In this document: positions 3,006-55,508 of the stretch, in pieces | Position numbering within the stretch: the first letter of the stretch is position 1 | Layout: the number at the start of each line of letters is the position of its first letter | Assembly (NCBI GenBank): GCA_020053475.1 | Contig: JAGVNC010000019.1 | Coordinates: 1-56,700, forward strand | Direction of reading: 5' to 3' | DNA: 56,700 nt | Origin: Candidatus Omnitrophota bacterium | GTDB taxonomy: Bacteria > Omnitrophota > Gorgyraeia > Zapsychrales > Zapsychraceae | Translations under genes and position numbers: made by a program | Notes under the pieces: model-generated | Seen by the model: only the letters and a program-made list of their open reading frames with translations | Database searches by the model: none | What the model was told of the DNA's origin: nothing

Positions 3006-3153
3006 ATTTAACGAAGAAGAAATACGGGCCTACATGTCCTTTCCGGCCGAGAAAAAACTTCGACATCTCAAAGCAATGAATAGTTTTTTAAGGAAAATTC
3101 GGCCGGCTAAAAGTAAAAATATCGCACGGCTTCTTCAGGAAAGAGGATTTTGA
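2983..3153 (+). CDS. Small hypothetical ORF (56 aa) overlapping the end of the previous ORF
   Basis: Hand translation gives MIKKKGPEFNEEEIRAYMSFPAEKKLRHLKAMNSFLRKIRPAKSKNIARLLQERGF*. It overlaps 2604..3005 by 23 nt. Below the ORF-track cutoff, with no recognisable family. Confidence 0.3.
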   Translation: MIKKKGPEFNEEEIRAYMSFPAEKKLRHLKAMNSFLRKIRPAKSKNIARLLQERGF

Positions 3154-3262
3154 GAGTGCGTATCATTTTTGCCATACACGGAATTCGAAGTCATAAAGAA
3201 CCGAATGAATTACGCCTGCAAATTTTTAAACAATAACTTTAAATTTACGCAGTTTAATCCCA

Positions 3263-3601
3263 GGGGCACGCAAGATTGTGCAGTGGTGTAAGGAGTGGGG
3301 ATTGCCAGAGCCGACTTATGAAGAGGCCGGGGGCAGTTTTGTGACGGTTTTTCATAATTCTAAGCAGGGGGATGGTGGTCAGAAAACTGGGGAGAAAACT
3401 GTGGAGATGGCTGTGGAGAAAACTGTGGAGAAAATTATCGCCATCATCAAAGCGAATCCACAAATTACCCAAAAAGAATTAATGGATAAAACAGGATTGA
3501 CGCGTCGAGGTGTTGAATGGAATCTGAAAAAGCTTAAGACAGAGAAAAGGATCGGGCGTATCGGCCCCGACAAAGGCGGGCATTGGGAAGTGCAGAATTG
3601 A
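3263..3601 (+). pseudogene. C-terminal fragment of a second AlbA_2/HATPase_c_4 regulator (paralogue of 1039..2418)
   Basis: GARKIVQWCKEWGLPEPTYEEAGGSFVTVF aligns with GTNKIVQWCKAWGLPEPKYEEAGGSFVVTF of the intact copy, followed by a wHTH (ITQKELMDKTGLTRRGVEWNLKKLK). No N-terminal or central domains are present. Confidence 0.7.
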
Positions 3602-3894
3602 TGCGTGATGATTACATCTTCTGTAACATTCGCGCATTTTATATGTGGGAGCGAGCGCGAGAATTTTACATAAAATGAGAATCTAGAAGTTGGCCGGAAA
3701 CCTCTTAAATCGATAGATTTTTTCGATAGATTTTTTTCGATTGGATGATATAAAGTTTTTTGTTAGAATGGCATTGCTGTTCAGATGCATCAATGGCGCG
3801 CGTATCGGCAAAAAGATTCAGCAAGAAATCAAACCGGAGGCGCTCGGTGAACTTTTAAATTCCTCGGCCCCTCAAATCATTGTAGGAGTCATTC

Positions 3895-6426: not shown

Positions 6427-7195
6427 TCCCAAGGTTAAATCCCTTGTCCGGTTGCGTGACCGTCGTGCCCGCGAGGAAAGCGGCTTGACGGTGATCGATG
6501 GGACAAGGGAAATTTCGTTGGCGTTAGAATCCGGGGCAAAGATAACGGAATTGTTTGTTTGCCGGGATTTTTGGCAGATGCAAGGGGAAGAAGACATTGT
6601 TCATAAAATATTAACTTTGAAAAAGCCGATCTATGAAACTACTCCTGCTGTCTTTAAGAAAATCGCTTTTGGGGAACGGCAGGAAGGGTTATTGGCAGTT
6701 TGCCAAGTTCCAACGTATACGTTTGAACGCTTGATGGACAAGAAAGGGTCGTTGTATGTTGTCGTTGACAGGGTTGAAAAGCCGGGCAATTTAGGCGCTA
6801 TTTTGCGTAGTTGTGATGCTGCCGGTGTCGATGGGGTGTTTGTCAGTGACGGAAAGACGGATATTTATAATCCCAATGTCATTCGCGCCAGTATCGGGAC
6901 GGTGTTTGGGCTTAATATTCTTTCGGCAGAATCTCAGCCGATCGCTGATTTTTTGAACAAGCAAAATATTCGGATCATTTCTGCTGAACCGAAAGCCAGG
7001 TTAACGTATTCACAGATCGATTGGAAAGGAAAGGTGGCGATTGTGGTGGGAAGCGAACAACAGGGCGTCAGCCCGTTTTGGCACGGGCAGGCAGGCTCTC
7101 GGGTTCGGATCCCGATGTTAGGGAAGGCCGACTCTTTAAACGTGTCGGTGGCCACAGCTCTTTTACTTTATGAAGCCGTCAGAGCACGACAATAA
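6395..7195 (+). CDS. TrmH/SpoU family RNA 2'-O-methyltransferase
   Basis: Contains EKPGNLGAILRSCDAAGV, VGSEQQGVS and IPMLGKADSLNVSVATALLLYE. Start chosen at the ATG at 6395; the ORF-track start at 6335 lies inside the GH5 gene. Confidence 0.8.
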   Translation: MPPENITSLNNPKVKSLVRLRDRRAREESGLTVIDGTREISLALESGAKITELFVCRDFWQMQGEEDIVHKILTLKKPIYETTPAVFKKIAFGERQEGLLAVCQVPTYTFERLMDKKGSLYVVVDRVEKPGNLGAILRSCDAAGVDGVFVSDGKTDIYNPNVIRASIGTVFGLNILSAESQPIADFLNKQNIRIISAEPKARLTYSQIDWKGKVAIVVGSEQQGVSPFWHGQAGSRVRIPMLGKADSLNVSVATALLLYEAVRARQ

Positions 7196-7901: not shown

Positions 7902-9865
7902 TTACTTTAAATAACTTGACCATGGGATTTTCGCAGAGGACATTGTTTAAAGATGTGTCCTTAAGCATTTTTCGTAATGAGAAAATCGGATTGACCGGGC
8001 CAAACGGCGCGGGAAAGACAACATTGTTCTCTATTATTCTGGGTGAAACCGAACCGGTGGCGGGAGAAATCCAAATCCAGAAGAATATCAATGTTGGCTA
8101 CTTGCCACAAGAGTCGATGTTTAGTTCGACACAGACCGTATTGGCCGAGTTGACGGAAGGTGATCAGCGCATCCGTAACCTCATGCAGGAAAAACGTAAA
8201 TTGGAGGACGGCAATAAGGCCGATTCCCCGCGTTACGGGGATGTCTTGCATGAACTTGAGCAATTAGGGATTTATGAATTAGAAAATAAAGCGGAACGCA
8301 TTCTCTCAGGGCTAGGATTTAGCCCTTCTGATTTTCACCAACCGATCAATGAGCTGAGCGGCGGCTGGCGGATGCGGACGTTGCTAGCCAAGCTGTTAAC
8401 GTATTCTTACGATGTTCTTCTTCTCGACGAGCCGACCAACTATTTGGATTTAGCGGCCACATTATGGCTCAAAGAGTTTTTGACCAACTATCAAGGCGCG
8501 TTTGTGTTGATTTCGCACGATCGCGTTTTTTTAAACGAGGTTACCAATTATACGATCATCTTGGAAGGGGCGAAGATGACCAAAATCAAAGGGAATTACG
8601 CCTCCTACGAAGAACAAAAAGGGATTGACATTAAAACACTGGAAAAGAAACACAAAGTCATTGAGAAAAAACGCCAGCAATTGGAAACGTTCGCGCAACG
8701 GTTTCATGCCCAACCGAATCGCGCCTCCGCGGTACGCAACAAACGCAAAATGATCGAGCGTTTAGAGAATATCGAATTGCCGACGGATCATTATAGTATG
8801 ACAGACTTTGAGTTTCCTTTAATTGAGCGCAGCGGGTATGTCGTGGCTCAGGTCGATCAATTGAGCAAGTCTTATGGGGACAAGTCGATCTATCAAAATC
8901 TTGACTATGAAATCACCCGCGGACAAAAAGTTTGTCTCGTTGGGCCCAATGGGGCAGGGAAGTCAACGTTCCTAAAAATGTTAGCCGGAGTGCTTCCCCC
9001 GGACAGCGGTCAAATCAAATATGGGTACAATGTGGATCACGGATATTTTTCTCAAACACGCCTGGAGGTCTTAAATCCCCAACGGACTGCGTTTGATGAG
9101 GTGGTGACCTCCGGCCCTCCCGGGACGCCGGCTCAAAATGTCCGTAGCCTCTTGGGCCTTTTTAATTTTCGGGGAGACGATGTCTTTAAATCAGTCAAAG
9201 TATTGTCCGGGGGAGAAAAGAGCCGGTTGATCTTGGCCAAATTATTAATCAACCCTCCGAATCTGATGCTTCTGGATGAGCCCACAACCCATCTTGATTT
9301 AGACGGTGTCAAAGCGTTAACCCATGCGTTTAAGCAATATGAAGGCACACTCATTTTCATCAGCCACGATCTTTATTTTATTAATGAAATCGCGGATTGC
9401 ATTGTTGAAGTTGATCAAGGGCGGTTAAAAACGTTTTTAGGTGGATTAGGATATTATCTGGAGAAAAAAGGGCAAAAACGGTTAACATCTGGTTCTTGGG
9501 AGCCGTCGGAGGGATCTGATCAACAGCCCGAATCCGGATCTCCGGAAGAGAAGTCCTCTCATAAAAAGAAGGGCGATAAATCTGGGCCCCTAGATCCCAT
9601 CGATTCCTTGCATCATCAGCATAAACAAGCGTTAAAACGGTTGGCAGACATCAAAACACAGATTCAAAATTTGGAGAACGAGAAAAAGGAATTAGAGATG
9701 GAGAATTATGTCAAGGCCAGGCACTTGGGAAAATCATTCGATAAGCGTGATGAGCAGACATTGAAAGATTACGGCCAGCGCTTGAAATGGATTCAACGAA
9801 GATTACGGGAGATCGAAACGACGATTAAACAATTGACCGAAGAAAAAACAAGAATCTCGAAATAA
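7898..9865 (+). CDS. ABC-F family ATPase (two ABC domains, coiled-coil C-terminal extension)
   Basis: Walker A GPNGAGKTT and GPNGAGKST; signatures LSGGWRMR and LSGGEKSR. The start ATG overlaps the upstream stop (ATGA). Confidence 0.85.
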   Translation: MITLNNLTMGFSQRTLFKDVSLSIFRNEKIGLTGPNGAGKTTLFSIILGETEPVAGEIQIQKNINVGYLPQESMFSSTQTVLAELTEGDQRIRNLMQEKRKLEDGNKADSPRYGDVLHELEQLGIYELENKAERILSGLGFSPSDFHQPINELSGGWRMRTLLAKLLTYSYDVLLLDEPTNYLDLAATLWLKEFLTNYQGAFVLISHDRVFLNEVTNYTIILEGAKMTKIKGNYASYEEQKGIDIKTLEKKHKVIEKKRQQLETFAQRFHAQPNRASAVRNKRKMIERLENIELPTDHYSMTDFEFPLIERSGYVVAQVDQLSKSYGDKSIYQNLDYEITRGQKVCLVGPNGAGKSTFLKMLAGVLPPDSGQIKYGYNVDHGYFSQTRLEVLNPQRTAFDEVVTSGPPGTPAQNVRSLLGLFNFRGDDVFKSVKVLSGGEKSRLILAKLLINPPNLMLLDEPTTHLDLDGVKALTHAFKQYEGTLIFISHDLYFINEIADCIVEVDQGRLKTFLGGLGYYLEKKGQKRLTSGSWEPSEGSDQQPESGSPEEKSSHKKKGDKSGPLDPIDSLHHQHKQALKRLADIKTQIQNLENEKKELEMENYVKARHLGKSFDKRDEQTLKDYGQRLKWIQRRLREIETTIKQLTEEKTRISK

Positions 9866-18414: not shown

Positions 18415-18488
18415 TGCCCGGTGGTGTAATGGTAACACACGAGAATTTGGATCTCGTTTTCCTGGTTCGAATCCAGGCTGGGCAGCCA
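18415..18488 (+). tRNA. tRNA-Gln (anticodon UUG), CCA encoded
   Basis: Hand fold: acceptor TGCCCGG/CTGGGCA, D stem GTGT/ACAC, anticodon stem CGAGA/TCTCG with loop ATTTGGA (anticodon TTG), T stem CCTGG/CCAGG with loop TTCGAAT, discriminator G, then CCA. Confidence 0.9.
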
Positions 18489-32106: not shown

Positions 32107-32141
32107 TCCATTTTAATTAAATAAATTTATATTAGCAGGAA

Positions 32142-32296
32142 GAACGACGGGGCCTGCCGCTCGATATTCCCCATCCGTGCTCGCATTGGCTGCGCACGGA
32201 TGGGGAGGCCCCTTCTCGTCCCTTGAAATCGTAAAACGATTTCAGGGATTTAATCCTGAGAAATGTGAACATTTCTCAGGACGTCACCCGTCGTTC
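32142..32296. repeat. Nested palindromes: 10-bp closing helix enclosing three hairpins (cloverleaf-like, about 155 nt)
   Basis: gaacgacggg (32142-51) pairs with cccgtcgttc (32287-96). Inside are three hairpins: a 12-bp stem ccccatccgtgc/gcacggatgggg; gaaatcg-taaaa-cgatttc; and gagaaatg-tgaa-catttctc. Confidence 0.75.
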
Positions 32297-32310
32297 CAAA
32301 CAATGTGAGT

Positions 32311-32396
32311 TTCAGCGGGTGGCCGGAAACGGGGTGCCCCAATGGCGCGCAGGTAACGAGCACCATTGGGGCTGTTTCCGGACAGGACCCGCTGAA
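32311..32396. repeat. 86-nt three-segment hairpin (28 bp paired)
   Basis: Three paired segments: ttcagcgggt/acccgctgaa, ccggaaac/gtttccgg and gccccaatgg/ccattggggc. Confidence 0.75.
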
Positions 32397-32438
32397 GAAA
32401 GATCTCTCTTATAAAGCCATTTTGACCAACCTCTTTTA

Positions 32439-32467
32439 TTGACACATTTCGGCTTTTTCTATATAAT
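32439..32467 (+). promoter_or_regulatory. Consensus sigma70 promoter for lysS
   Basis: TTGACA, a 17-nt spacer, then TATAAT, read exactly, 55 nt upstream of the lysS ATG. Confidence 0.65.
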
Positions 32468-32521
32468 TAAATGTCTTTTAATAATATTAATATTACATAT
32501 TAACTATATAAGGCGGGATTG

Positions 32522-33967: not shown

Positions 33968-33970
33968 GAT

Positions 33971-34095
33971 GGTCGTAAGGTTAAGGGTTTGGAGGCGAGT
34001 ATAGTTTTAGGGTTTGGTTCTTAGGCAAAAATTTAGCCTAACCCCCAAAACTTATGACCATACTCGTTTCTAAGCCTTATACCCTAAACCCTTTA
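33971..34095. repeat. Long imperfect palindrome, G/T-rich arm then A/C-rich arm
   Basis: The centre is ttaggc-N9-gcctaa. agtttt.ggg pairs with cccccaaaact, and cgagtat pairs with atactcg. AGGGTTT/AAACCCT heptads recur in the arms. Confidence 0.65.
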
Positions 34096-34099
34096 AAAA

Positions 34100-44985: not shown

Positions 44986-44990
44986 TTCTC

Positions 44991-45053
44991 CCGTGGAAGG
45001 CAAAGCCTTCCCGGGATTTTAAATCCCCGAAATCGCGAAGCGATTTCAGGAGA
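44991..45053 (-). repeat. REP/MITE-like double-hairpin element (copy 2; inverted relative to the 52476 copy)
   Basis: The element reads ccgtggaaggc-aaa-gccttcccgg, then gggattttaaatcccc, then gaaatcgc-gaa-gcgatttc. It is about 88% identical to the reverse complement of 52476..52536. A partial third arm tcccgtggaaag follows. Confidence 0.8.
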
Positions 45054-45153
45054 TCCCGTGGAAAGTAAAGTAAAAGAGTTTAAACTCCCTATTATCAAAA
45101 CATTTTTATCGCAACCCAAAACGCTTTCGATGGACGACTACTTAAAGTAAACG

Positions 45154-46101
45154 ATGCATAACGATAATCTTCATTTATGGCAACATGCGCATACGTTTGG
45201 CCAGGAACATCAACGTTCAGGGGAACGCCGGACGACTCTTGTGATTGCCATTACAGCGACGATGATGGTGGTTGAAATTGTTACCGGCATCATCTTCGGG
45301 TCGATGGCCTTGCTGGCCGATGGTTTGCACATGGCTTCTCATACAACGGCCCTTTTCATCAACGTCTTTGCCTACATTTATGCCCGGCGCCACGCTCATG
45401 ATCGGCGATACAGTTTTGGTACTGGGAAGGTCAATGCTTTGGGAGGATTTTCGGGGGCTGTCCTGCTTGCGGTGTTCGCCCTGATGATGGTATGGGGAAG
45501 TGTTGAGCGCATCATTCATTCTGTCCTGATTGCGTTTAACCAAGCCATTTTTGTAGCCGTTATCGGATTAATGATTAACGGAGCTTCGGTATTTATCCTA
45601 GGGCATGACGACGATCATCACGACACGCGCGCCCCTTCCGACCATCACCATGACCACAATTTAAGGTCAGCTTATTTTCATGTGATGGCCGACGCCCTTA
45701 CATCCGTCCTGGCGATTATGGCTCTTGTCGCAGCAAAATATTTTGGTCTCATTTGGATGGACCCTTTGATGGGCATTGTCGGCGCTATTCTGGTGTGCCG
45801 GTGGGCATGGGGACTTTTGCATGTAACCAGTTCTATTTTGCTTGATAAACAGGGATCGGGTCAAATCATCACAGAGATCAAGGAACGGATTGAACGTGTC
45901 GGCGATAACCGAGTTGCTGACCTTCACCTCTGGGTGATAGGCCCGGATATTTACGGTGTGATCATTTCGGTTGTTACTCATCATCCCGAACCACCCGAGT
46001 ACTACAAGAAGCTACTTCCTTCCGATTTGGGGCTGGTTCATGTGACGATAGAGGTTCATCAATGCCCTGAGAAGGAAGATTCTAGATTAGTCAGTCGATA
46101 A
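45154..46101 (+). CDS. Cation diffusion facilitator (DmeF/CzcD-like metal efflux)
   Basis: His-rich N-terminus (H.H.FGQEH), six TM helices with the HMASH and HVMAD motifs, and a His-rich loop (DDDHHDT...DHHHDH). Confidence 0.8.
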   Translation: MHNDNLHLWQHAHTFGQEHQRSGERRTTLVIAITATMMVVEIVTGIIFGSMALLADGLHMASHTTALFINVFAYIYARRHAHDRRYSFGTGKVNALGGFSGAVLLAVFALMMVWGSVERIIHSVLIAFNQAIFVAVIGLMINGASVFILGHDDDHHDTRAPSDHHHDHNLRSAYFHVMADALTSVLAIMALVAAKYFGLIWMDPLMGIVGAILVCRWAWGLLHVTSSILLDKQGSGQIITEIKERIERVGDNRVADLHLWVIGPDIYGVIISVVTHHPEPPEYYKKLLPSDLGLVHVTIEVHQCPEKEDSRLVSR

Positions 46102-46694: not shown

Positions 46695-47381
46695 ATGGAA
46701 TTATTAAACGGATTATTTACATTGTTTTTATTTGTGGCAGGGTTTGTCCTGGTGGTCGCTGTGTTTTTCCAGGAGGAAATTAAATCCACCAAAGAACGCG
46801 ACCCGGCGGCTACGGGATATTTACAAATCATCCTGTTGTATGCCGGATTGCACGCGCTGATCGGCTATAAAATTTCCAGCGCGTTATGGAAGGCCAATTT
46901 GAAACTGTTGGCACGGGCCGTGTCGCAGTTCACGCGCTTTTTGACCGGCATTGAAATCCATCCCGCAGCCGTGATTGGCCGCGGGTTGTTCATCGATCAC
47001 GGAATGGGCGTTGTCGTCGGAGAGACATCCATCATCGGAGAAAATGTGACCTTGTTCCAAGGCGTGACGCTCGGGGGGACAGGTAAGGAGACGGGCAAGC
47101 GCCACCCCACACTGGGAAATAATATCGTGGTCGGGGCCGGGGCCAAGATTTTAGGCAATATTGTGATCGGGGACAACACGTATGTTGGGGCCAATGCGGT
47201 GGTGTTGCGCGATATTCCGGCCAATTCAACGGTCGTGGGCGTTCCCGGGCACATCACCAAGCAAGACGGCAAGAAAATCGATATCATGCTCGACCATGCC
47301 CAGGCATCGGACCCGATTATGCAGCATTTGAAAGATTTACTTGTCCGCATCAAAACGTTGGAAGATAAGGATAAACATTAA
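46695..47381 (+). CDS. cysE: Serine O-acetyltransferase
   Basis: IHPAA.IG.G.FIDHG.GVVIGET..IG, with hexapeptide repeats. Confidence 0.85.
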   Translation: MELLNGLFTLFLFVAGFVLVVAVFFQEEIKSTKERDPAATGYLQIILLYAGLHALIGYKISSALWKANLKLLARAVSQFTRFLTGIEIHPAAVIGRGLFIDHGMGVVVGETSIIGENVTLFQGVTLGGTGKETGKRHPTLGNNIVVGAGAKILGNIVIGDNTYVGANAVVLRDIPANSTVVGVPGHITKQDGKKIDIMLDHAQASDPIMQHLKDLLVRIKTLEDKDKH

Positions 47382-47387
47382 ATCATT

Positions 47388-47458
47388 CCTGGATTGTCCG
47401 CTGGCCTTTCCGCTCAGGCGCTTCGCTAATTCGCGGCAAGGCCACCAGCCAATCCAGG
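47388..47458 (+). repeat. Hairpin unit 1 of the cysE-cysS array (core in + orientation)
   Basis: Stems cctggattg/caatccagg, tggcctt/aaggcca and ccgc/gcgg enclose the core tccgctcaggcgcttcgctaattcgcg (47409-47435). Confidence 0.85.
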
Positions 47459-47471
47459 ATGTTATTTAATA

Positions 47472-47556
47472 AATCTTGGTTTTTATTGGCCTTTCGGCTC
47501 AGGCGCGGGCAAAAAGCGCCCGCTAATTCGCCTCAAAGCCAATAAAAACCAAGATT
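47472..47556 (+). repeat. Hairpin unit 2 (core in + orientation, apex expanded)
   Basis: Perfect 19-bp stem aatcttggtttttattggc/gccaataaaaaccaagatt. The core is tcggctcaggcgc[gggcaaaaagcgcc]cgctaattcgcc (47494-47532). Confidence 0.85.
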
Positions 47557-47568
47557 ATCAATTTTAAT

Positions 47569-47634
47569 GTGGATTTTTTTAGCCTCGACGCGAATTAGCG
47601 AAGCGCCTTGAGCGGAGAAGCTAAAAAAATCCAC
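47569..47634 (-). repeat. Hairpin unit 3 (core inverted)
   Basis: Perfect 15-bp stem gtggatttttttagc/gctaaaaaaatccac. The core at 47589-47616 is the reverse complement, tccgctcaaggcgcttcgctaattcgcg. The unit is followed by gttgatatttttt. Confidence 0.85.
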
Positions 47635-47654
47635 GTTGATATTTTTTCCTGATC

Positions 47655-49061
47655 ATGGCACTTTATATTTATAATTCTCTCACCAAGCGCAAAGAGGCCA
47701 TTCCTCCCGCCAAAGAGCAAAAAACCATCAAGATGTATTCGTGCGGTGTCACGGCGTACGACCGTTGCCACATTGGCCACGCCCGCAGCCTGTACGTGTT
47801 CGACGTGATCCGTCGGTACTTAAAATTTAGCGGATACAACATGAATTTTGTGCGCAACATTACCGACATCGATGACAAAATCATCAACAGAGCCAACGAA
47901 TTAAAGAAACGTTTTGAAGTTGTTGTCAAAGAGAACATCGACGCCTACTATCAGGATTTGGAAGCGCTGGGGATCGCCAAGGCCGACATCGAGCCGCGCG
48001 CGACCGAGAACATCCCGGAGATGGTTGCCCACATCGAGGCCTTGATTAAGAAAGATTACGCGTACGAGATCGGGGGAGACGTGTATTTTAGCGTCCGCCA
48101 ATTCAAGAATTACGGCAAGCTTTCGCACCAAAGCATCGATCAAATGAAGGAAGCCACGCGCATCGATGCCGATCCGCGCAAAAAAGACCCCCTGGATTTC
48201 GCGTTGTGGAAAAAATCCAAAGACGGCGAGCCTTCTTGGAAAAGTCCGTGGGGACAAGGACGCCCGGGTTGGCACATCGAATGCTCGTGCATGAGCATGA
48301 AATTTTTAAAGACCCATACATTGGACATCCACGCCGGCGGACGGGACCTGATTTTCCCGCACCACGAAAACGAGATCGCCCAGTCCGAGGCCTTGACCGG
48401 AAAACCGTTTGCCAAACATTGGATCCATCACGGGTTGCTCACCATTAACGGCCAAAAGATGGCCAAGTCGTTAGGGAATTTTATTACCGTTCAGGACGTG
48501 TTAAAAAAATATCCCGTCGATACCCTCAAAATGTTTTTTTTAGCGTCGCATTACGCGAGCCCCATTGATTATAGCGAAGAAAAAATCCAGGAAGCGGGCA
48601 AGGCCCTGCAAAAATTTGATATTCTCTTTTGGAAGGCCGCCGGATTGATCCAGGACGAAACAATCGAAGGCTGCAACGCGGATTTCATCGAGCGCGCGGA
48701 AATAAGTTTTACCAAAGCAATGGACGATGATTTTAATACGCCTCAGGCGTTAGCGGCGTTGTTCGATCTCGTCAATGACACCAACAAATTCATCGATGAG
48801 GAAAAGAAAGATCCCCGTTACCAGGAAATCATTTTCCAAGCGGTCGAGACGCTGGAAACGTATTGCCGGGAAGTGTTCGGGCTCTTTACGAAAGAGCCGC
48901 AAAAAGAATTACCGCCGGCAACCAAAGAGTTACTCGATCAGCGCGCCCAAGCCAGGCAAAAGAAAGATTTCAAGCGGTCCGATGAGATCCGTGCGTTGTT
49001 ACAGGCCCAAGGTGTTGTCGTTGAAGATACCAAAGAAGGCCAAACGTGGAGATGGGCGTGA
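47655..49061 (+). CDS. cysS: Cysteine--tRNA ligase
   Basis: Contains CGVT.YD..HIGHAR, the zinc-site CH motifs and the KMSKS variant KMAKS. Confidence 0.9.
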   Translation: MALYIYNSLTKRKEAIPPAKEQKTIKMYSCGVTAYDRCHIGHARSLYVFDVIRRYLKFSGYNMNFVRNITDIDDKIINRANELKKRFEVVVKENIDAYYQDLEALGIAKADIEPRATENIPEMVAHIEALIKKDYAYEIGGDVYFSVRQFKNYGKLSHQSIDQMKEATRIDADPRKKDPLDFALWKKSKDGEPSWKSPWGQGRPGWHIECSCMSMKFLKTHTLDIHAGGRDLIFPHHENEIAQSEALTGKPFAKHWIHHGLLTINGQKMAKSLGNFITVQDVLKKYPVDTLKMFFLASHYASPIDYSEEKIQEAGKALQKFDILFWKAAGLIQDETIEGCNADFIERAEISFTKAMDDDFNTPQALAALFDLVNDTNKFIDEEKKDPRYQEIIFQAVETLETYCREVFGLFTKEPQKELPPATKELLDQRAQARQKKDFKRSDEIRALLQAQGVVVEDTKEGQTWRWA

Positions 49062-49645
49062 GGATTCCCAACGTTTATATTATTGCCGGGCCTAATGGAG
49101 CTGGGAAAACAACGTTTGCTAAACAATATTTACCTTTATATGCTAAATGCAAAAATTTTGTAAACGCTGATTTTATTGCGCAAGGGTTGGCGCCGTTTAC
49201 ACCAGAATCGGTTGTCATTAAAGCAGGTAGGATTCTTTTAGAACAAATTGATGCTTTAGCTAACCAAAATGTTGATTTTGCCTTTGAGTCTACTTTGTCA
49301 GGTAAAGCATATATCCCCTTTCTCAAAGAATTAAAATCGAAGGGTTATATTATTCATATTTTCTTTTTATGGATTCCTACCGTCAATCTTGCTTTAGCCA
49401 GAATTAGAGAAAGAGTAGAACAAGGTGGGCATAACGTTCCTGCCAAAGATGTTCGTCGGCGTTTTGTAAAAAGTTTGAATAATTTCTTTAACGATTATAA
49501 ACTGCTTACTGATCATTGGTGTATCCTTGACAATTCTACCATCCCGCCTCGATTACTTGCTGAGGGAAAACCTGGTAAAATTGATATTTTTGATGCTGAG
49601 GTTTATAAAAACATTTCAAAAGGAAGGGATAAAACCCATGATTAA
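49052..49645 (+). CDS. Zeta-toxin-like / COG4185-type P-loop ATPase
   Basis: Walker A IIAGPNGAGKTT and a zeta-like layout (FAFESTLSG; GGHNVP..DVRRRF). The start overlaps the cysS stop. AT-richer than its neighbours. Confidence 0.65.
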   Translation: MGVRIPNVYIIAGPNGAGKTTFAKQYLPLYAKCKNFVNADFIAQGLAPFTPESVVIKAGRILLEQIDALANQNVDFAFESTLSGKAYIPFLKELKSKGYIIHIFFLWIPTVNLALARIRERVEQGGHNVPAKDVRRRFVKSLNNFFNDYKLLTDHWCILDNSTIPPRLLAEGKPGKIDIFDAEVYKNISKGRDKTHD

Positions 49646-49802
49646 AGTGAAAAAAATTAGAAATCAGGCTGAAAAAGCCATGCGAGAAGCCGTAAATAAA
49701 GTTGTTGAAGAGAGTAAGAAATCTGGAATTCTTTTACCTGTCTGGAAAAACGGCAAAGTGGCTTATATTAGAGCCAAAAATATTCGCAAAACGGGACGAT
49801 AA
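49638..49802 (+). CDS. 54-aa basic protein translationally coupled to the zeta-like gene
   Basis: MIKVKKIRNQAEKAMREAVNKVVEESKKSGILLPVWKNGKVAYIRAKNIRKTGR*. Its ATG overlaps the upstream stop (ATGATTAA), and an SD (AGGAAGGG) lies about 10 nt upstream. Confidence 0.5.
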   Translation: MIKVKKIRNQAEKAMREAVNKVVEESKKSGILLPVWKNGKVAYIRAKNIRKTGR

Positions 49803-49807
49803 CGCAG

Positions 49808-50440
49808 ATGAAGGGTAAATTCATTACATTCGAAGGATCGGAAGGGTCGGGGAAGTCGACGCAGATTGCGTTGCTGCATAAATATTTGAAACGCAAAGGC
49901 AAGTCGATTGTCTTTATCCGCGAGCCGGGGGCCACCAACATCGGCGAGAAAATCCGCCAGGTGCTCCTTGACGTCAAGAGTGCGGGGATGAATGATATTT
50001 GCGAAACGTTTCTCTACATGGCCGCGCGCGCGCAGTTGGTCGAGGAAGTGATTCGCCCCGCGCTCGCCCAAGGCAAAATTGTGTTGTGCGACCGATTTTT
50101 AGATTCCACATCTGTTTACCAGGGTTACGGCAACGGCGTTGATTTAAAATTGATCGAATCAATGGGCAAGGCCGCCACACAAGGCGTTAATCCGGACATT
50201 ACGTTCTTTTTTGATTTGGATGCGGGCAAAGGATTGTCGCGACTGAAACGAAAGAAGGACCGCATCGAACGCCGCTCGCTCGCGTATCACCGTCGGGTGC
50301 GTGCTGGTTACCAGGCGCTGGCGAAGAAGGACCCGGAACGTATTAAATTAATCGCTGTCGATGGATCGATTGAAGAGATCCACGGGAGAGTAGTGGGATA
50401 TATTGATCAATTATTAAAAATCCAAAACTCAAAACACTAA
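49808..50440 (+). CDS. tmk: dTMP kinase
   Basis: FITFEGSEGSGKSTQ, DRF.DST.VYQG and the lid region RLKRKKDRIE. Confidence 0.9.
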   Translation: MKGKFITFEGSEGSGKSTQIALLHKYLKRKGKSIVFIREPGATNIGEKIRQVLLDVKSAGMNDICETFLYMAARAQLVEEVIRPALAQGKIVLCDRFLDSTSVYQGYGNGVDLKLIESMGKAATQGVNPDITFFFDLDAGKGLSRLKRKKDRIERRSLAYHRRVRAGYQALAKKDPERIKLIAVDGSIEEIHGRVVGYIDQLLKIQNSKH

Positions 50441-50543
50441 ATCCAAAATAAACTCAAAATACAAAATACAAAAGTACGAAATTGTTTGGATCATTTGAAT
50501 TTTGGATTTGTTTAGGATTTTGGGTTTAGAGTTTTGAGTTTAT
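50416..50543. repeat. About 128-nt imperfect palindrome (A/C-rich arm then G/T-rich arm) built from degenerate AAAYYCAAAAY units
   Basis: Arm pairings: actcaaaac.ctaaa with tttagagttttgagt, taaatccaaaat with attttgggttt, and aaactcaaaat with aattttggattt. The element overlaps the last 8 tmk codons and ends at the stop codon that opens the holB frame. Confidence 0.7.
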
Positions 50544-52422: not shown

Positions 52423-52475
52423 GAATGTTTATTAATGTCGCCAGCCGCCAGTCTCTGGTGACCGGCGACTAGCGA

Positions 52476-52536
52476 TCCTCTGAAATCGCTTTACGATTTC
52501 GGGGATTAAATCCCGGGAAGGCGAAGCCTTCCACGG
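52476..52536 (+). repeat. REP/MITE-like double-hairpin element (copy 1) flanked by a 9-bp direct repeat
   Basis: The element reads ctgaaatcg-cttta-cgatttcgg, then ggggattaaatccc, then cgggaaggc-gaa-gccttccacgg. gactagcga occurs at 52467-75 and again at 52537-45. Confidence 0.8.
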
Positions 52537-52548
52537 GACTAGCGACTT

Positions 52549-54045
52549 ATGAAAAAATTTTTTGTAACTACTCCAATTTACTACGTCAACGACAAGCCGC
52601 ACATCGGCCACGCGTACACAACCATCCTCGCCGATGTCTTGAGCCGCTTCCACCGCCAGCAGGGAGACGATGTCTTTTTCTTGACGGGATTGGATGAGCA
52701 CGGACAAAAAGTCCTGCAAGCCGCCGAGAAACGCGGCGTGTCCCCCCAACAACACTGCGACGAACTCGCCCCGCGCTTTTTGCAGTTGTGGGACAAGTTA
52801 GAAATCGGTTACAGCGACTTTATCCGCACGACCCAGTTGCGCCACGTCAAAGTCGTCCAGGATGTGTTGCAAAAAGTGTACGACGCCGGCGACATTTATC
52901 AGGATGAGTACACGGGCTGGTATTCCGTGGCCGAGGAGCGCTTCATCACCGCAACCGAAAAAGAATCGGGGCAGTTTCGCGACGTCAAAGAGCTCAAAGA
53001 AAAGAATTGGTTTTTTAAGATGAGTAAGTATCAGGCGCAGCTCATCAAAACCATCGAAGACAATCCCGGCTTTATCCAACCCAGCCATCGACGTAATGAA
53101 ATCCTTGGGTTTTTAAAGCAACCGTTGGGTGATTTGTGTATTTCCCGTCCCAAATCACGGATGAGTTGGGGGATTGATTTGCCCTTCGACAAGGATTACG
53201 TCACCTACGTCTGGTGGGACGCGCTGGTCAATTACATCACCGCTCCCGGTTACGGCGTCGATGAGAATAATTTCAAGAAATGGTGGCCGGCCCAAGTGCA
53301 TTTGATCGGCAAAGATATTCTAACGACCCACGCTGTGTATTGGCCCACCATGTTATTTTCGTTGGGGCTCCCGTTGCCGCAAACGATTTTCGCGCACGGC
53401 TGGTGGCTCATCGGGGAATCCAAAATGAGCAAGTCGGTGGGGAACGTCGTCAATCCTCTGGATTTGGTCGACAAGTATGGGGTTGATCCGGTGCGTTATT
53501 TTTTGATGCGCGAGATGATTTTAGGCCAGGACGCGAATTTCACGCTCGATAGTTTTATCAAACGCTACAATTCGGATCTTGCCAATGATTTTGGGAATTT
53601 GCTCAATCGTGTCGGGGGGCTCATCACGAAATTGTTTAATGGAGAAGTGCCCAAGCCCGGAAAATCCGAAGCCACTGAAACCGAAATCCACAATATCGTC
53701 AATGCGTTGCCTGAGAAAATCAATAAATGTTTAAGCGAATGGAGTGTCAATGGCGCGATTGAAGAGGCAATGAACCTCGTGCGCCACACCAATAAATATA
53801 TTGAATCGCAAGCCCCCTGGAAGGTCGCCAAAACCGATATGGAGCGCACCGCCACCATCCTCTACACAGCCACCGAAGCGCTACGCGCCGCCACTGTTCA
53901 CCTTGCCGCGGTCATGCCAGCGAAAACCAATACCGTTTTAGCAATTTTAGGCGCCAAAGGCACCGGCCCGTCGTGGGGAGGGCTCAAGCCCGGCACCAAA
54001 CTCCCCAGCCATGAAGCGTTGTTTCCGAGGTTGGAGGTGGAATGA
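52549..54045 (+). CDS. metG: Methionine--tRNA ligase (short form)
   Basis: Contains TTPIYYVNDKPHIGHAY and KMSKSVGN; 498 aa with no C-terminal tRNA-binding domain. Confidence 0.9.
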   Translation: MKKFFVTTPIYYVNDKPHIGHAYTTILADVLSRFHRQQGDDVFFLTGLDEHGQKVLQAAEKRGVSPQQHCDELAPRFLQLWDKLEIGYSDFIRTTQLRHVKVVQDVLQKVYDAGDIYQDEYTGWYSVAEERFITATEKESGQFRDVKELKEKNWFFKMSKYQAQLIKTIEDNPGFIQPSHRRNEILGFLKQPLGDLCISRPKSRMSWGIDLPFDKDYVTYVWWDALVNYITAPGYGVDENNFKKWWPAQVHLIGKDILTTHAVYWPTMLFSLGLPLPQTIFAHGWWLIGESKMSKSVGNVVNPLDLVDKYGVDPVRYFLMREMILGQDANFTLDSFIKRYNSDLANDFGNLLNRVGGLITKLFNGEVPKPGKSEATETEIHNIVNALPEKINKCLSEWSVNGAIEEAMNLVRHTNKYIESQAPWKVAKTDMERTATILYTATEALRAATVHLAAVMPAKTNTVLAILGAKGTGPSWGGLKPGTKLPSHEALFPRLEVE

Positions 54046-54308: not shown

Positions 54309-55367
54309 ATGGTTCGGAAAGTTCGATTAACTAAGTCCCCCGATTTGAAGTCCCAGGTCCAACAGCTGCGTTCCCAGTTCGGTGATGTGATCAATGTCAC
54401 CAACGCCGAATGGTATTCTTTATTTAAAGATGAAATCCGCAATTCGATCGCGATTGAAGGTGTTTTCACCAACCGCCAGGACCTCTTAGATGTCCTTGAA
54501 CATAACAAACGCACGGACAAGCAAAAGGCGGCGGCAATTTTGGGTTACTACGAAGCCGCCAGTGCCATGTATGAATACGCCAATAATCAATTTAAAGAAA
54601 ATGAGTTTATGCTGCGCATGGCCGATATTAAGCAAATCCATACGCTCTTGATGCGTTATGAAAAAGATCTAGGAACATATATTGGCGCGATTGGGGATTT
54701 CCGCAAAAATAATATCCAGGTGGCCCAGGCCACATTTCGCCCTGTGGATGTTTTTTACGTGCGCCAGGCCATGGAATTGTTCATTAAATGGTTTAATGAA
54801 AATCTAAAAAAGAAACATTATGACGGCATCACGTTGTCCGCCATCGCCCATGTCTGGTTCGAGACCATTCATCCCTTTAGCGACGGCAACGGGCGGGTGG
54901 GGAGGATCTTATTGAATTATGCCCTCATTGGGCAGGGGTTGATGAATGTGGCGATTAAAGGCGTCGCCAAGAATGAGCGTGAGCAATACTATCATGTCTT
55001 GGAGAAAGCGGACCGCTCGTTTGAAGACATTCATCGTCGGATCGAGGGGGGGAAGAAAATCCAACCCGCCGATCTCGCCCGATCAATCCGCCAAGAAGAT
55101 GTCCAGCCGTTTGTTGTCATGATTACCGGGTTGCTCAAGGAAGCAATCAACCGGCTGAAAGGCGGGAAGCTAACGAATTTAAGCCAGGAAGCGCTTGTGC
55201 CTTTACGCGATCTCGCCCGTGTGTATGACTATTCGCAGGATTATCTGCGCAATTTGATCAATCGCGGCCAGTTGAAAGCTCAGAAAAAAGGGAAGCTGTG
55301 GTACGTCCGTGTGCGCGATTTAGCGCGGTACGTGGAGAAGGCGGGGAAAAGTGCGCCACACCAATAA
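54309..55367 (+). CDS. fic: Fic/DOC family protein with N-terminal inhibitory helix motif and C-terminal excisionase/MerR-like HTH
   Basis: Fic motif HPFSDGNGRVGR. The sequence SIAIEG fits the (S/T)xxxE(G/N) auto-inhibition motif. The C-terminus LVPLRDLARVYDYSQDYLRNLINRGQLKAQKKGKLWYVRVRDLARYV is HTH_17-like. Confidence 0.8.
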   Translation: MVRKVRLTKSPDLKSQVQQLRSQFGDVINVTNAEWYSLFKDEIRNSIAIEGVFTNRQDLLDVLEHNKRTDKQKAAAILGYYEAASAMYEYANNQFKENEFMLRMADIKQIHTLLMRYEKDLGTYIGAIGDFRKNNIQVAQATFRPVDVFYVRQAMELFIKWFNENLKKKHYDGITLSAIAHVWFETIHPFSDGNGRVGRILLNYALIGQGLMNVAIKGVAKNEREQYYHVLEKADRSFEDIHRRIEGGKKIQPADLARSIRQEDVQPFVVMITGLLKEAINRLKGGKLTNLSQEALVPLRDLARVYDYSQDYLRNLINRGQLKAQKKGKLWYVRVRDLARYVEKAGKSAPHQ

Positions 55368-55508
55368 ATATATCGAATGCCAGCAAAAACCAATACCGTC
55401 TTAGCAATTTTAAGCGCCAAAGGCACCGGCCCGTCGTGGGGTGGGCTAAAGCCTGGTACCAAATTACCCGCGCACGAAGCATTGTTCCCGAGGTTGGAGG
55501 TGGAGTAG
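55351..55508 (+). pseudogene. Second, internally deleted copy of the metG 3' end
   Basis: 55351-78 matches 53779-53806, and 55379-55508 matches 53916-54045. A 109-nt internal deletion causes a frameshift. The last 43 codons differ at 17 of 129 nt, mostly synonymously. Confidence 0.85.

Follow-up and report, generated by a model that had tools for sequence, protein, structure and literature searches.

A lineage-specific array of three homologous hairpin units between cysE and cysS in a Candidatus Omnitrophota genome

In the 56,700-nt stretch of contig JAGVNC010000019.1 analyzed here (the window; Candidatus Omnitrophota bacterium, assembly GCA_020053475.1), the 273-nt spacer between the cysE and cysS genes is taken up almost wholly by three hairpins, U1, U2 and U3. 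The coordinates and folds of the three units bear out what a first-pass annotation of this DNA had described. The units are diverged copies of one imperfect palindrome of ∼75–90 nt, because their stems align in register and covary. They belong to a known class, the intergenic hairpin repeats of bacteria, and are not a new element type. In the explanation that we favor, and that we hold about as probable as all the others together, the array is a private palindromic repeat, similar to repetitive extragenic palindromic (REP) sequences and bacterial interspersed mosaic elements (BIMEs) or to miniature inverted-repeat transposable elements (MITEs), which was inserted in the tight cysE-cysS junction, reached three units by local multiplication and is now transcribed as hairpins between the two cistrons.

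The positions of the units and their cores are listed in Table 1. The shared core is 27–28 nt in length, and its orientations across U1, U2 and U3 are + + −. The core pattern GCTCA-N0-1-GGCGC-N3-25-GCTAATTCGC has three matches in 56.7 kb, where 0 are expected; all three are located in the spacer, and the third is on the minus strand. The shared core with its inverted third copy had been reported at first pass, together with the view that the inversion argues against one sense-strand RNA motif and for repeated DNA, which we judge to be right. As also stated there, the U1 and U3 cores are a single 1-nt indel apart (one inserted A), and in U2 the GCG-CTT-CGC tip is replaced by a longer GC hairpin, GCGGGC-A5GC-GCCCGC. 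Over 27 nt, the U3 core is 93% complementary to the U1 core. The core centre is an asymmetric internal loop, TCAG opposite TAATTC, flanked by two short helices. In U1 and U3, 19–20 central bases are unpaired, which is unfavorable for the earlier proposal of a protein-binding core presented on cruciforms. The conserved block common to U1 and U2 reaches positions 47402–47444 in U1, and the extended U3 stem covers 47556–47645. Compared to shuffled sequences, the spacer folds with z = −10.2 on the plus strand and z = −13.0 on the minus strand. The folding energies are −36.4 (plus) and −42.4 kcal/mol (minus) for U1, and −43.1 (plus) and −51.5 kcal/mol (minus) for U2. The four longest hairpin-type inverted repeats in the whole window are all within this spacer.

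The stems were read outward from the 4-bp core helix, with one 2-bp indel allowed in U1, which gave a position-by-position alignment. Covariation was scored on a MAFFT alignment with that structure; it contains 29 pairs, 25 in the main stem and four in the tip. Over the 29 pairs, 92.3% of the cells are paired, versus ≤48% when the partners were slid. Thirteen of the 25 main-stem pairs are invariant across the units and seven show compensatory double changes, a number that was reached by only 5 of 500 shuffles. All of the tip pairs (4/4) are invariant, and the T×C mismatch adjoining the core helix is kept in all three units. The pairwise alignment runs through the arms of all three units. The outermost blocks of the arms (TGGATT/AATCCA for U1 and U3, TGGTTT/AAACCA for U2) line up in register, so that TGGWTT/AAWCCA is found in every unit at equal distance from the core. 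In shuffle tests, the similarity of the outermost arms gave p about 0.01 for U1-U3 and 0.06–0.08 for the other pairs. Outside the core as first annotated, U1 and U2 have TGGCCTTT...CAARGCCA in common, with direct repeats of 20 nt (95%) and 21 nt (86%). The arms are thus held complementary via compensatory change, and the centre is the best conserved part. The first-pass statement that the stems share no sequence is wrong, and the premise of unrelated stems, on which all three mechanisms proposed there were built, fails. An ordinary repeat family with conserved stems, which the annotation had set against its own reading, is what we found; the stems are both conserved and covarying.

Table 1. 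Features of the cysE-cysS array, the second hairpin repeat of the window, and the cysE-cysS hairpins of relatives (window positions unless a relative's locus is named)
Feature	Position	Strand	Description
cysE, upstream gene	46695–47381	+	Open reading frame; Pfam Hexapep; serine O-acetyltransferase-like, hexapeptide repeat
ATCAT, left copy	47382–47386	+	5-bp direct repeat around the whole array
U1	47387–47459	+	Inverted repeat; imperfect hairpin, 10 + 7 + 4 bp plus 4-bp tip
U1 core	47409–47435	+	Core pattern match; TCCGCTCAGGCGCTTCGCTAATTCGCG
U2	47472–47556	+	Inverted repeat; hairpin, 19-bp perfect outer stem
U2 core	47494–47532	+	4-bp core helix carries a compensatory change from C-G to G-C
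U3	47569–47634	−	Inverted repeat, folds; hairpin, 14-bp perfect outer stem, core on minus strand
U3 core	47589–47616	−	Core pattern match; TCCGCTCAAGGCGCTTCGCTAATTCGCG read on minus strand
T6 run	47642–47647	+	Immediately follows the extended stem of U3; cysS ATG 8 nt downstream
ATCAT, right copy	47652–47656	+	Overlaps the cysS start codon
cysS, downstream gene	47655–49061	+	Open reading frame; Pfam tRNA-synt_1e; cysteine--tRNA ligase
Second repeat, full copy	44989–45049	+	
Second repeat, full copy	52480–52538	−	
Second repeat, partial copy	32224–32256		
Relative's cysE-cysS hairpin	L029 9958–9986		
Relative's cysE-cysS hairpin	L071 2922–2992		
Relative's cysE-cysS hairpin	L073 2950–2982		
Relative's cysE-cysS hairpin	L069 1710–1787		

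To place the array in its lineage, we compared the locus with its relatives. The CysS of the window is 98% identical to that of a Candidatus Omnitrophota metagenome-assembled genome (P0001, GCA_030648475.1, locus L028), and the next relatives are 65–69% identical. In an exact-protein look-up, CysE was identical in L028 and in no others, and CysS had no match. The L028 spacer is also 273 nt, and its sole difference is T>C at 47543, within U2, which gives an A×C mismatch on the plus strand and a G-T wobble on the minus strand. Because the same spacer is present in this second, independent assembly, the array is not an assembly artefact. The near-identity of the two spacers is no evidence of purifying selection, cysE having 0 differences in 687 nt and ispF 2. 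Over the stretch from ispF through the initial 400 nt of cysS, the window and L028 differ by 0–0.6%, and a dense synonymous cluster follows before an indel; the cysS divergence is confined to the 3′ two-thirds of the gene, adjoining this 756-bp indel. The pattern is that of a recombination mosaic. The 756-bp insertion is located between cysS and tmk (window 49063–49818, versus L028 2812–2819) and is missing in L028; its open reading frame encodes a zeta-toxin-like P-loop protein (49046–49645, PF06414, E = 1.4e-8).

None of the six relatives with 65–69% CysS identity contains the array units. Their cysE-cysS spacers are 0 (L070), 3 (L066), 64 (L073), 79 (L071), 82 (L029) and 93 nt (L069) in length, and in several relatives the ispD-ispF-cysE-cysS-tmk-holB genes overlap or nearly so. 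The array is lineage-specific, and because the relatives' junctions measure 0–93 nt and are free of units, it is probably a gain inside the operon. The relatives with the 0–3-nt junctions are distant at 65–69% CysS identity, and these junctions do not represent same-species empty sites. When the array and one ATCAT copy are removed from the window sequence, TAA-ATC-ATG remains, which resembles the junctions of L070 and L066. The ATCAT pair is flush with the array ends and is a weak hint of a target-site duplication, its chance occurrence having a probability of roughly 0.01–0.05.

The four non-trivial spacers of the six relatives are each filled by one long hairpin that is unrelated in sequence, so that hairpins recur at the cysE-cysS junction within the clade. 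In L029 the hairpin is GTAGAGACGA...TCGTCTCTAC, with a REP-like GTAG foot. The L071 hairpin has a 31-bp stem with six G-U pairs on the sense strand, and its energy is −44.5 kcal/mol on that strand versus −21.9 kcal/mol on the other. For three of the four hairpins, folding on the sense strand is far more stable and includes 3–6 G-U pairs. In L029, long hairpins are also located in the radA-PIN (6774–6882) and ispD-ispF (8609–8703) spacers; the former contains nested palindromes (GTGTCATTGCGAG...CTCGCAATGACAC), and the latter is built of AGTATGA repeats.

We then searched for further copies and for known families. No further copy of the core or of the unit was found in the window outside the cysE-cysS spacer, and an nhmmer search (--max) with the unit profile against the window and 74 loci gave no additional copy. 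An exact scan with the core pattern gave 26 matches in species-representative genomes, 35 in metagenome contigs and 1 in IMG/VR. These matches are all single and are without the extended core or a flanking hairpin, and their number is about that expected by chance for 20 specified bases. The spacer itself was returned from neither of the two large collections, and their negative result covers the other species represented there. BLAST of the spacer against plasmids and phages gave no match. The search for the core on both strands that was suggested at first pass thus found none in the rest of the window, the genomes, the metagenomes, IMG/VR, the plasmids or the phages. At the gathering score, Rfam 15 identified only a tRNA at 18415 in the window and nothing in the spacer; a permissive scan of the spacer gave sub-threshold generic hairpins only (miRNA precursors, and Phe_leader with 27 bits at a threshold of 55). 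The Y1/HUH or other single-stranded-DNA transposase that the annotation had suggested looking for was not found, and no transposase, integrase or recombinase of any kind is present among the 48 window open reading frames scanned with Pfam, a set that leaves out the McsA, McsB, ClpC, RadA and PIN-domain genes, which are named from the relatives' maps. No regulator gene adjoins the spacer.

Hairpin repeats are also present elsewhere in the window. Every window spacer of 45–420 nt was folded, and besides the cysE-cysS spacer four have z < −4 (32107–32518, 33968–34099, 44986–45153 and 52423–52548). The 412-nt lpxI-lysS spacer (32107–32518), which matched no Rfam family at the gathering score, folds with −157 kcal/mol (z = −9.6) into four or more strong hairpins. 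The lysS-ftsX spacer (33968–34099) contains one long single hairpin (z = −5.8). At 50425–50541, an A/T-rich hairpin of ∼117 nt, more stable on the sense strand, lies across the tmk stop codon (z = −5.9). A second repeat, which consists of the hairpins GGAAGGC-NNN-GCCTTCC and GAAATCG-N5-CGATTTC joined by GGGATTT(T)AAATCCC, occurs in three spacers, one of which is the lpxI-lysS spacer with its partial copy. The two full copies are in opposite orientations and are 88.5% identical over 61 nt. One of them (here 52476–52536) is bracketed by the only two GACTAGCGA 9-mers of the window (52467–52475 and 52537–52545), and this pair looks like a target-site duplication. Because the second repeat is dispersed and has such a flank, small hairpin elements have apparently been mobile in this genome. 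An all-against-all comparison of the window spacers detected no sequence in common between the cysE-cysS units and the other hairpin repeats.

Several other features of the window were noticed. A cation-efflux (CDF) gene (45154–46101) is located between ispD and ispF, and in L029, L066, L071 and L073 ispD is directly followed by ispF; the second-repeat copy in the ispD-CDF spacer lies at the edge of this apparent CDF insertion. The 3′ end of metG is duplicated (53914–54041 and 55377–55504; 128 nt, 88%; also 53779–53806 and 55351–55378), the duplicate lying beyond a Fic/DOC + HTH_17 gene (54309–55367), which looks inserted with duplication of its target. Positions 3375–3431 contain four to five tandem 12-nt repeats (CTGTGGAGAAAA) inside 889 nt (3006–3894) without a called open reading frame of ≥120 aa. 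Accessory, defence-like genes are present at the left window end (265–2418), coding for Hypoth_Ymh (PF09509) and for a Schlafen AlbA_2 / HATPase_c_4 protein.

The window is gene-dense, and nearly all genes are on the plus strand. The local order is ispD, the CDF transporter gene, ispF, cysE, cysS, the zeta-toxin-like open reading frame, tmk and holB. The promoter scan found no sigma-70-like promoter in the cysE-cysS spacer, and no Shine-Dalgarno-like purine run is located upstream of cysS. Since the spacer has no promoter and cysE and cysS are 0–3 nt apart in relatives, cysS is presumably transcribed by read-through of all three hairpins. The first-pass annotation had pointed out both the missing promoter and the T-run after U3, which our scan and the T6 run support, and transcription through the array into cysS was a reasonable inference on its part. 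Among the units, the extended U3 stem alone ends at T6, and the base of this stem is A/T-rich. The T6 run is possibly a weak terminator tail; the terminator scan made no call anywhere in the spacer, the T6 run included.

Several known structures were also compared with the array and rejected. A K-turn and mimicry of the tRNA-Cys anticodon arm were both discarded on sequence comparison. A leader peptide was rejected as well, the 29-codon open reading frame through U2 being without Cys codons. A cysS promoter or leaderless start inside U3 has no −35 match. For an integron attC site, the flanks GTTATTT and GTTGATA misfit GTTRRRY, and no integrase is present in the scanned window open reading frames.

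In the favored explanation, a repeat would have entered an ancestrally tight cysE-cysS junction, of 0–3 nt or with one short hairpin, and would then have been multiplied locally to three units. The inverted third core may have arisen in two ways: the whole nearly symmetric unit was reverse-copied, or its asymmetric centre was flipped when its own inverted arms recombined with each other (flip/flop). Insertion in free orientation is unnecessary, because the unit is near-symmetric and an arm-bracketed centre can flip. A C×A mismatch at stem position 7 on the plus strand, present in both U2 and U3, is the single informative mismatch outside the core; this one site may slightly favor a flip of the centre only over inversion of the whole unit. 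The arms would have diverged yet stayed complementary, with the central loop and the two small helices nearly unchanged, and both the single-stranded folding and the core sequence would have been constrained or homogenized. Located within an operon and without its own promoter, the array would be co-transcribed with cysE and cysS, and the intercistronic hairpins would most likely shield the 3′ end of cysE, reduce read-through and release cysS from its coupling to cysE.

Several observations weigh against this explanation. No family copy exists outside this one spacer in the window and none turned up in the public collections searched, and dispersal, the hallmark of REP and MITE elements, is not demonstrated because of this. 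No transposase gene is present among the scanned window open reading frames. The units exceed classical REPs in length and are without the GTAG foot. ATCAT, and the TTTAAT found near both sides of U2, are direct repeats short enough to occur by chance. The core is far better conserved (96–100%, U1 versus U3) than the arms (only about 60–70% identical), and simple neutral decay of duplicated DNA does not explain this; the contrast calls either for a constraint that holds the core sequence whichever way it is oriented, or for gene conversion among the cores. Finally, all three hairpins pair better on the minus strand, unlike what is predicted for a function as sense RNA.

REP/BIME elements of Proteobacteria are mobilized by RAYT (REP-associated tyrosine) transposases of the Y1 type, and REPs stabilize upstream mRNA, for example at malE-malF. 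Like these elements, the units are imperfect palindromes in a spacer of co-transcribed genes, clustered, in mixed orientation (here + + −) and species-specific, and transcription as intercistronic hairpins would be a further likeness. Different from REPs of about 20–40 nt, the units are 66–85 nt, or up to about 90 nt when extended. Their 5′ ends are TCCTGG, AATCTTGG and GTGGAT instead of a GTAG foot, and conservation is highest in the centre, not at the foot of the stem. REPs are dispersed in tens to hundreds of copies, whereas three copies at one locus are present in 56.7 kb here, with no RAYT among the scanned open reading frames.

Like MITE and foldback repeats (Correia/NEMIS, RUP, ERIC/IRU and BOX), the units are part of the 60–150-nt class of long hairpins that lie between operon genes in either orientation. 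The second repeat family of the window, with its 9-bp flank resembling a target-site duplication, adds to this likeness, and the relatives' 0–3-nt junctions without units correspond to empty sites, although in distant relatives. MITEs conserve their terminal inverted repeats, which are bound by the transposase; here the termini vary and the centre is conserved. The arms of the units are inverted repeats that share TGGWTT/AAWCCA, and their very ends differ between units. Target-site duplications of the cysE-cysS units are only hinted at by ATCAT and TTTAAT, and the copies are seen at one spacer only. A further likeness, drawn from established knowledge, is to the flip/flop of adeno-associated virus and other parvovirus inverted terminal repeats and to loop inversions of plastid hairpins, in which an arm-bracketed asymmetric centre occurs in both orientations. 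By analogy, flip/flop would give a simple route to the inverted third core, although the cysE-cysS array has neither terminal hairpins nor rolling-hairpin replication.

The best-placed rival, which we consider unlikely but worth serious attention, is the local amplification of a functional intercistronic RNA hairpin or terminator without any mobile element; one centre would have been flipped, and selection would act on processing, stability or partial termination. It would fit the single long hairpin at the junction of four of six relatives, and the much higher sense-strand stability of three of these four. The confinement of all family copies to one spacer, the covarying stems and the T6 run directly after the extended U3 stem would also be expected from it. 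However, the junctions of two relatives are only 0–3 nt, and the hairpins seen in relatives differ greatly in size and are unrelated in sequence, so independent gains are at least as likely as inheritance. The hairpins of the window, moreover, pair better on the antisense strand, and the same genome contains a clearly dispersed hairpin repeat with a flank resembling a target-site duplication.

In view of that strand preference, the minus strand might be the functional one, with the hairpins acting as antisense small RNAs or as single-stranded DNA structures with GCGAAGC tips, but we regard this as improbable. Compared to the plus strand, the minus strand of the spacer has eight instead of four G-U pairs and folds with −140 instead of −123 kcal/mol, owing to C×A mismatches of the plus strand that become G-U pairs. 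Every unit follows this trend, and the only L028 polymorphism (47543) is likewise a mismatch on the plus strand and a wobble on the minus strand. The tip on the strand opposite to the core as written is GCGAAGC; this heptamer forms a DNA mini-hairpin of exceptional stability, known from the priming sites of phages and plasmids (PMC13037366). However, U1 and U3 show this mini-hairpin on opposite strands (minus in U1, plus in U3), GCGAAGC is not enriched in the window (13 copies versus 8.8 expected), the wobble asymmetry rests on about five sites (p about 0.06), and no minus-strand promoter is located upstream of the array.

The core also contains a quasi-palindrome, CGCTAATTCGCG (CGC-N-AATT-N-GCG), and its threefold occurrence could be read as an operator array, with the site of a dimeric regulator of cysS in each unit. 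The 12-mer of U1 recurs unchanged in U3 and with one base altered in U2 (CGCTAATTCGCC); being nearly symmetric, it would make orientation of little import. Nevertheless, we give this reading little credence. Binding to a duplex needs no hairpin arms, and the seven compensatory stem changes would be unexplained; the non-palindromic rest of the core is equally conserved, and the spacer offers no promoter to regulate and no adjoining regulator gene.

A regulatory RNA switch of cysS is very improbable as well. U1 and U2 would be the sensors and U3 the expression platform, with the local U3 hairpin and its U-run terminating transcription and U1:U3 core pairing allowing read-through. The specific form of a previously unknown switch, in which the U1/U2 loop (UCAG / UAAUUC) binds a cysteine-related signal and U3 toggles between a U6-tailed hairpin and 27-bp pairing with the U1 core, is slightly more doubtful still. 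To our knowledge, no cysteine-responsive riboswitch is known. Both flanking genes are cysteine-related, U6 follows the extended U3 stem, and the conserved two-stranded internal loop, with covarying helices around it and a variable tip, would suit such a role. The two conformations of the sense strand are nearly iso-energetic, three local hairpins having −120.0 kcal/mol and the nested U1:U3 core fold −122.8 kcal/mol; however, this is an automatic consequence of the U3 unit being U1 copied in inverted form. The element was found in a single species and in none of the relatives, its sense-strand mismatches become G-U pairs on the antisense strand, and it has no Rfam match at the gathering score. 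The U3 stem has an A/U-rich base, which sets it apart from intrinsic terminators, and it went uncalled in the terminator scan. In CsrB/RsmZ, cuckoo RNAs and guanidine-II mini-ykkC, adjacent hairpins likewise present one conserved motif on varying stems. Different from the array, in which one unit is inverted and the stems are homologous, these RNAs have every hairpin on the same strand, with the motif as apical loop; those families are widespread, whereas the cysE-cysS repeat is private.

The model of the first-pass annotation, a small core that inserts either way into the loops of unrelated pre-existing palindromes, or whose arms are made from the target, would account for the contrast between core and arms and for both orientations, and is the least credible of all, as homology extends in register through the arms, in which 13 of the 25 main-stem pairs are invariant, the covariation contradicts it, the relatives' 0–93-nt junctions have no room for three pre-existing palindromes, and the core was found nowhere else searched.

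If the array is indeed a private palindromic repeat, species-specific hairpin repeats loosen the streamlined co-directional operons of Omnitrophota, and such repeats can sit 8 nt before an essential aminoacyl-tRNA synthetase gene. The units also call for caution in repeat annotation, as seemingly unrelated stems may be homologous after compensatory change. The import would be greater if the conserved asymmetric core were the recognition site of a mobilizing enzyme, or if it were a ligand-sensing or protein-binding RNA loop controlling cysS.

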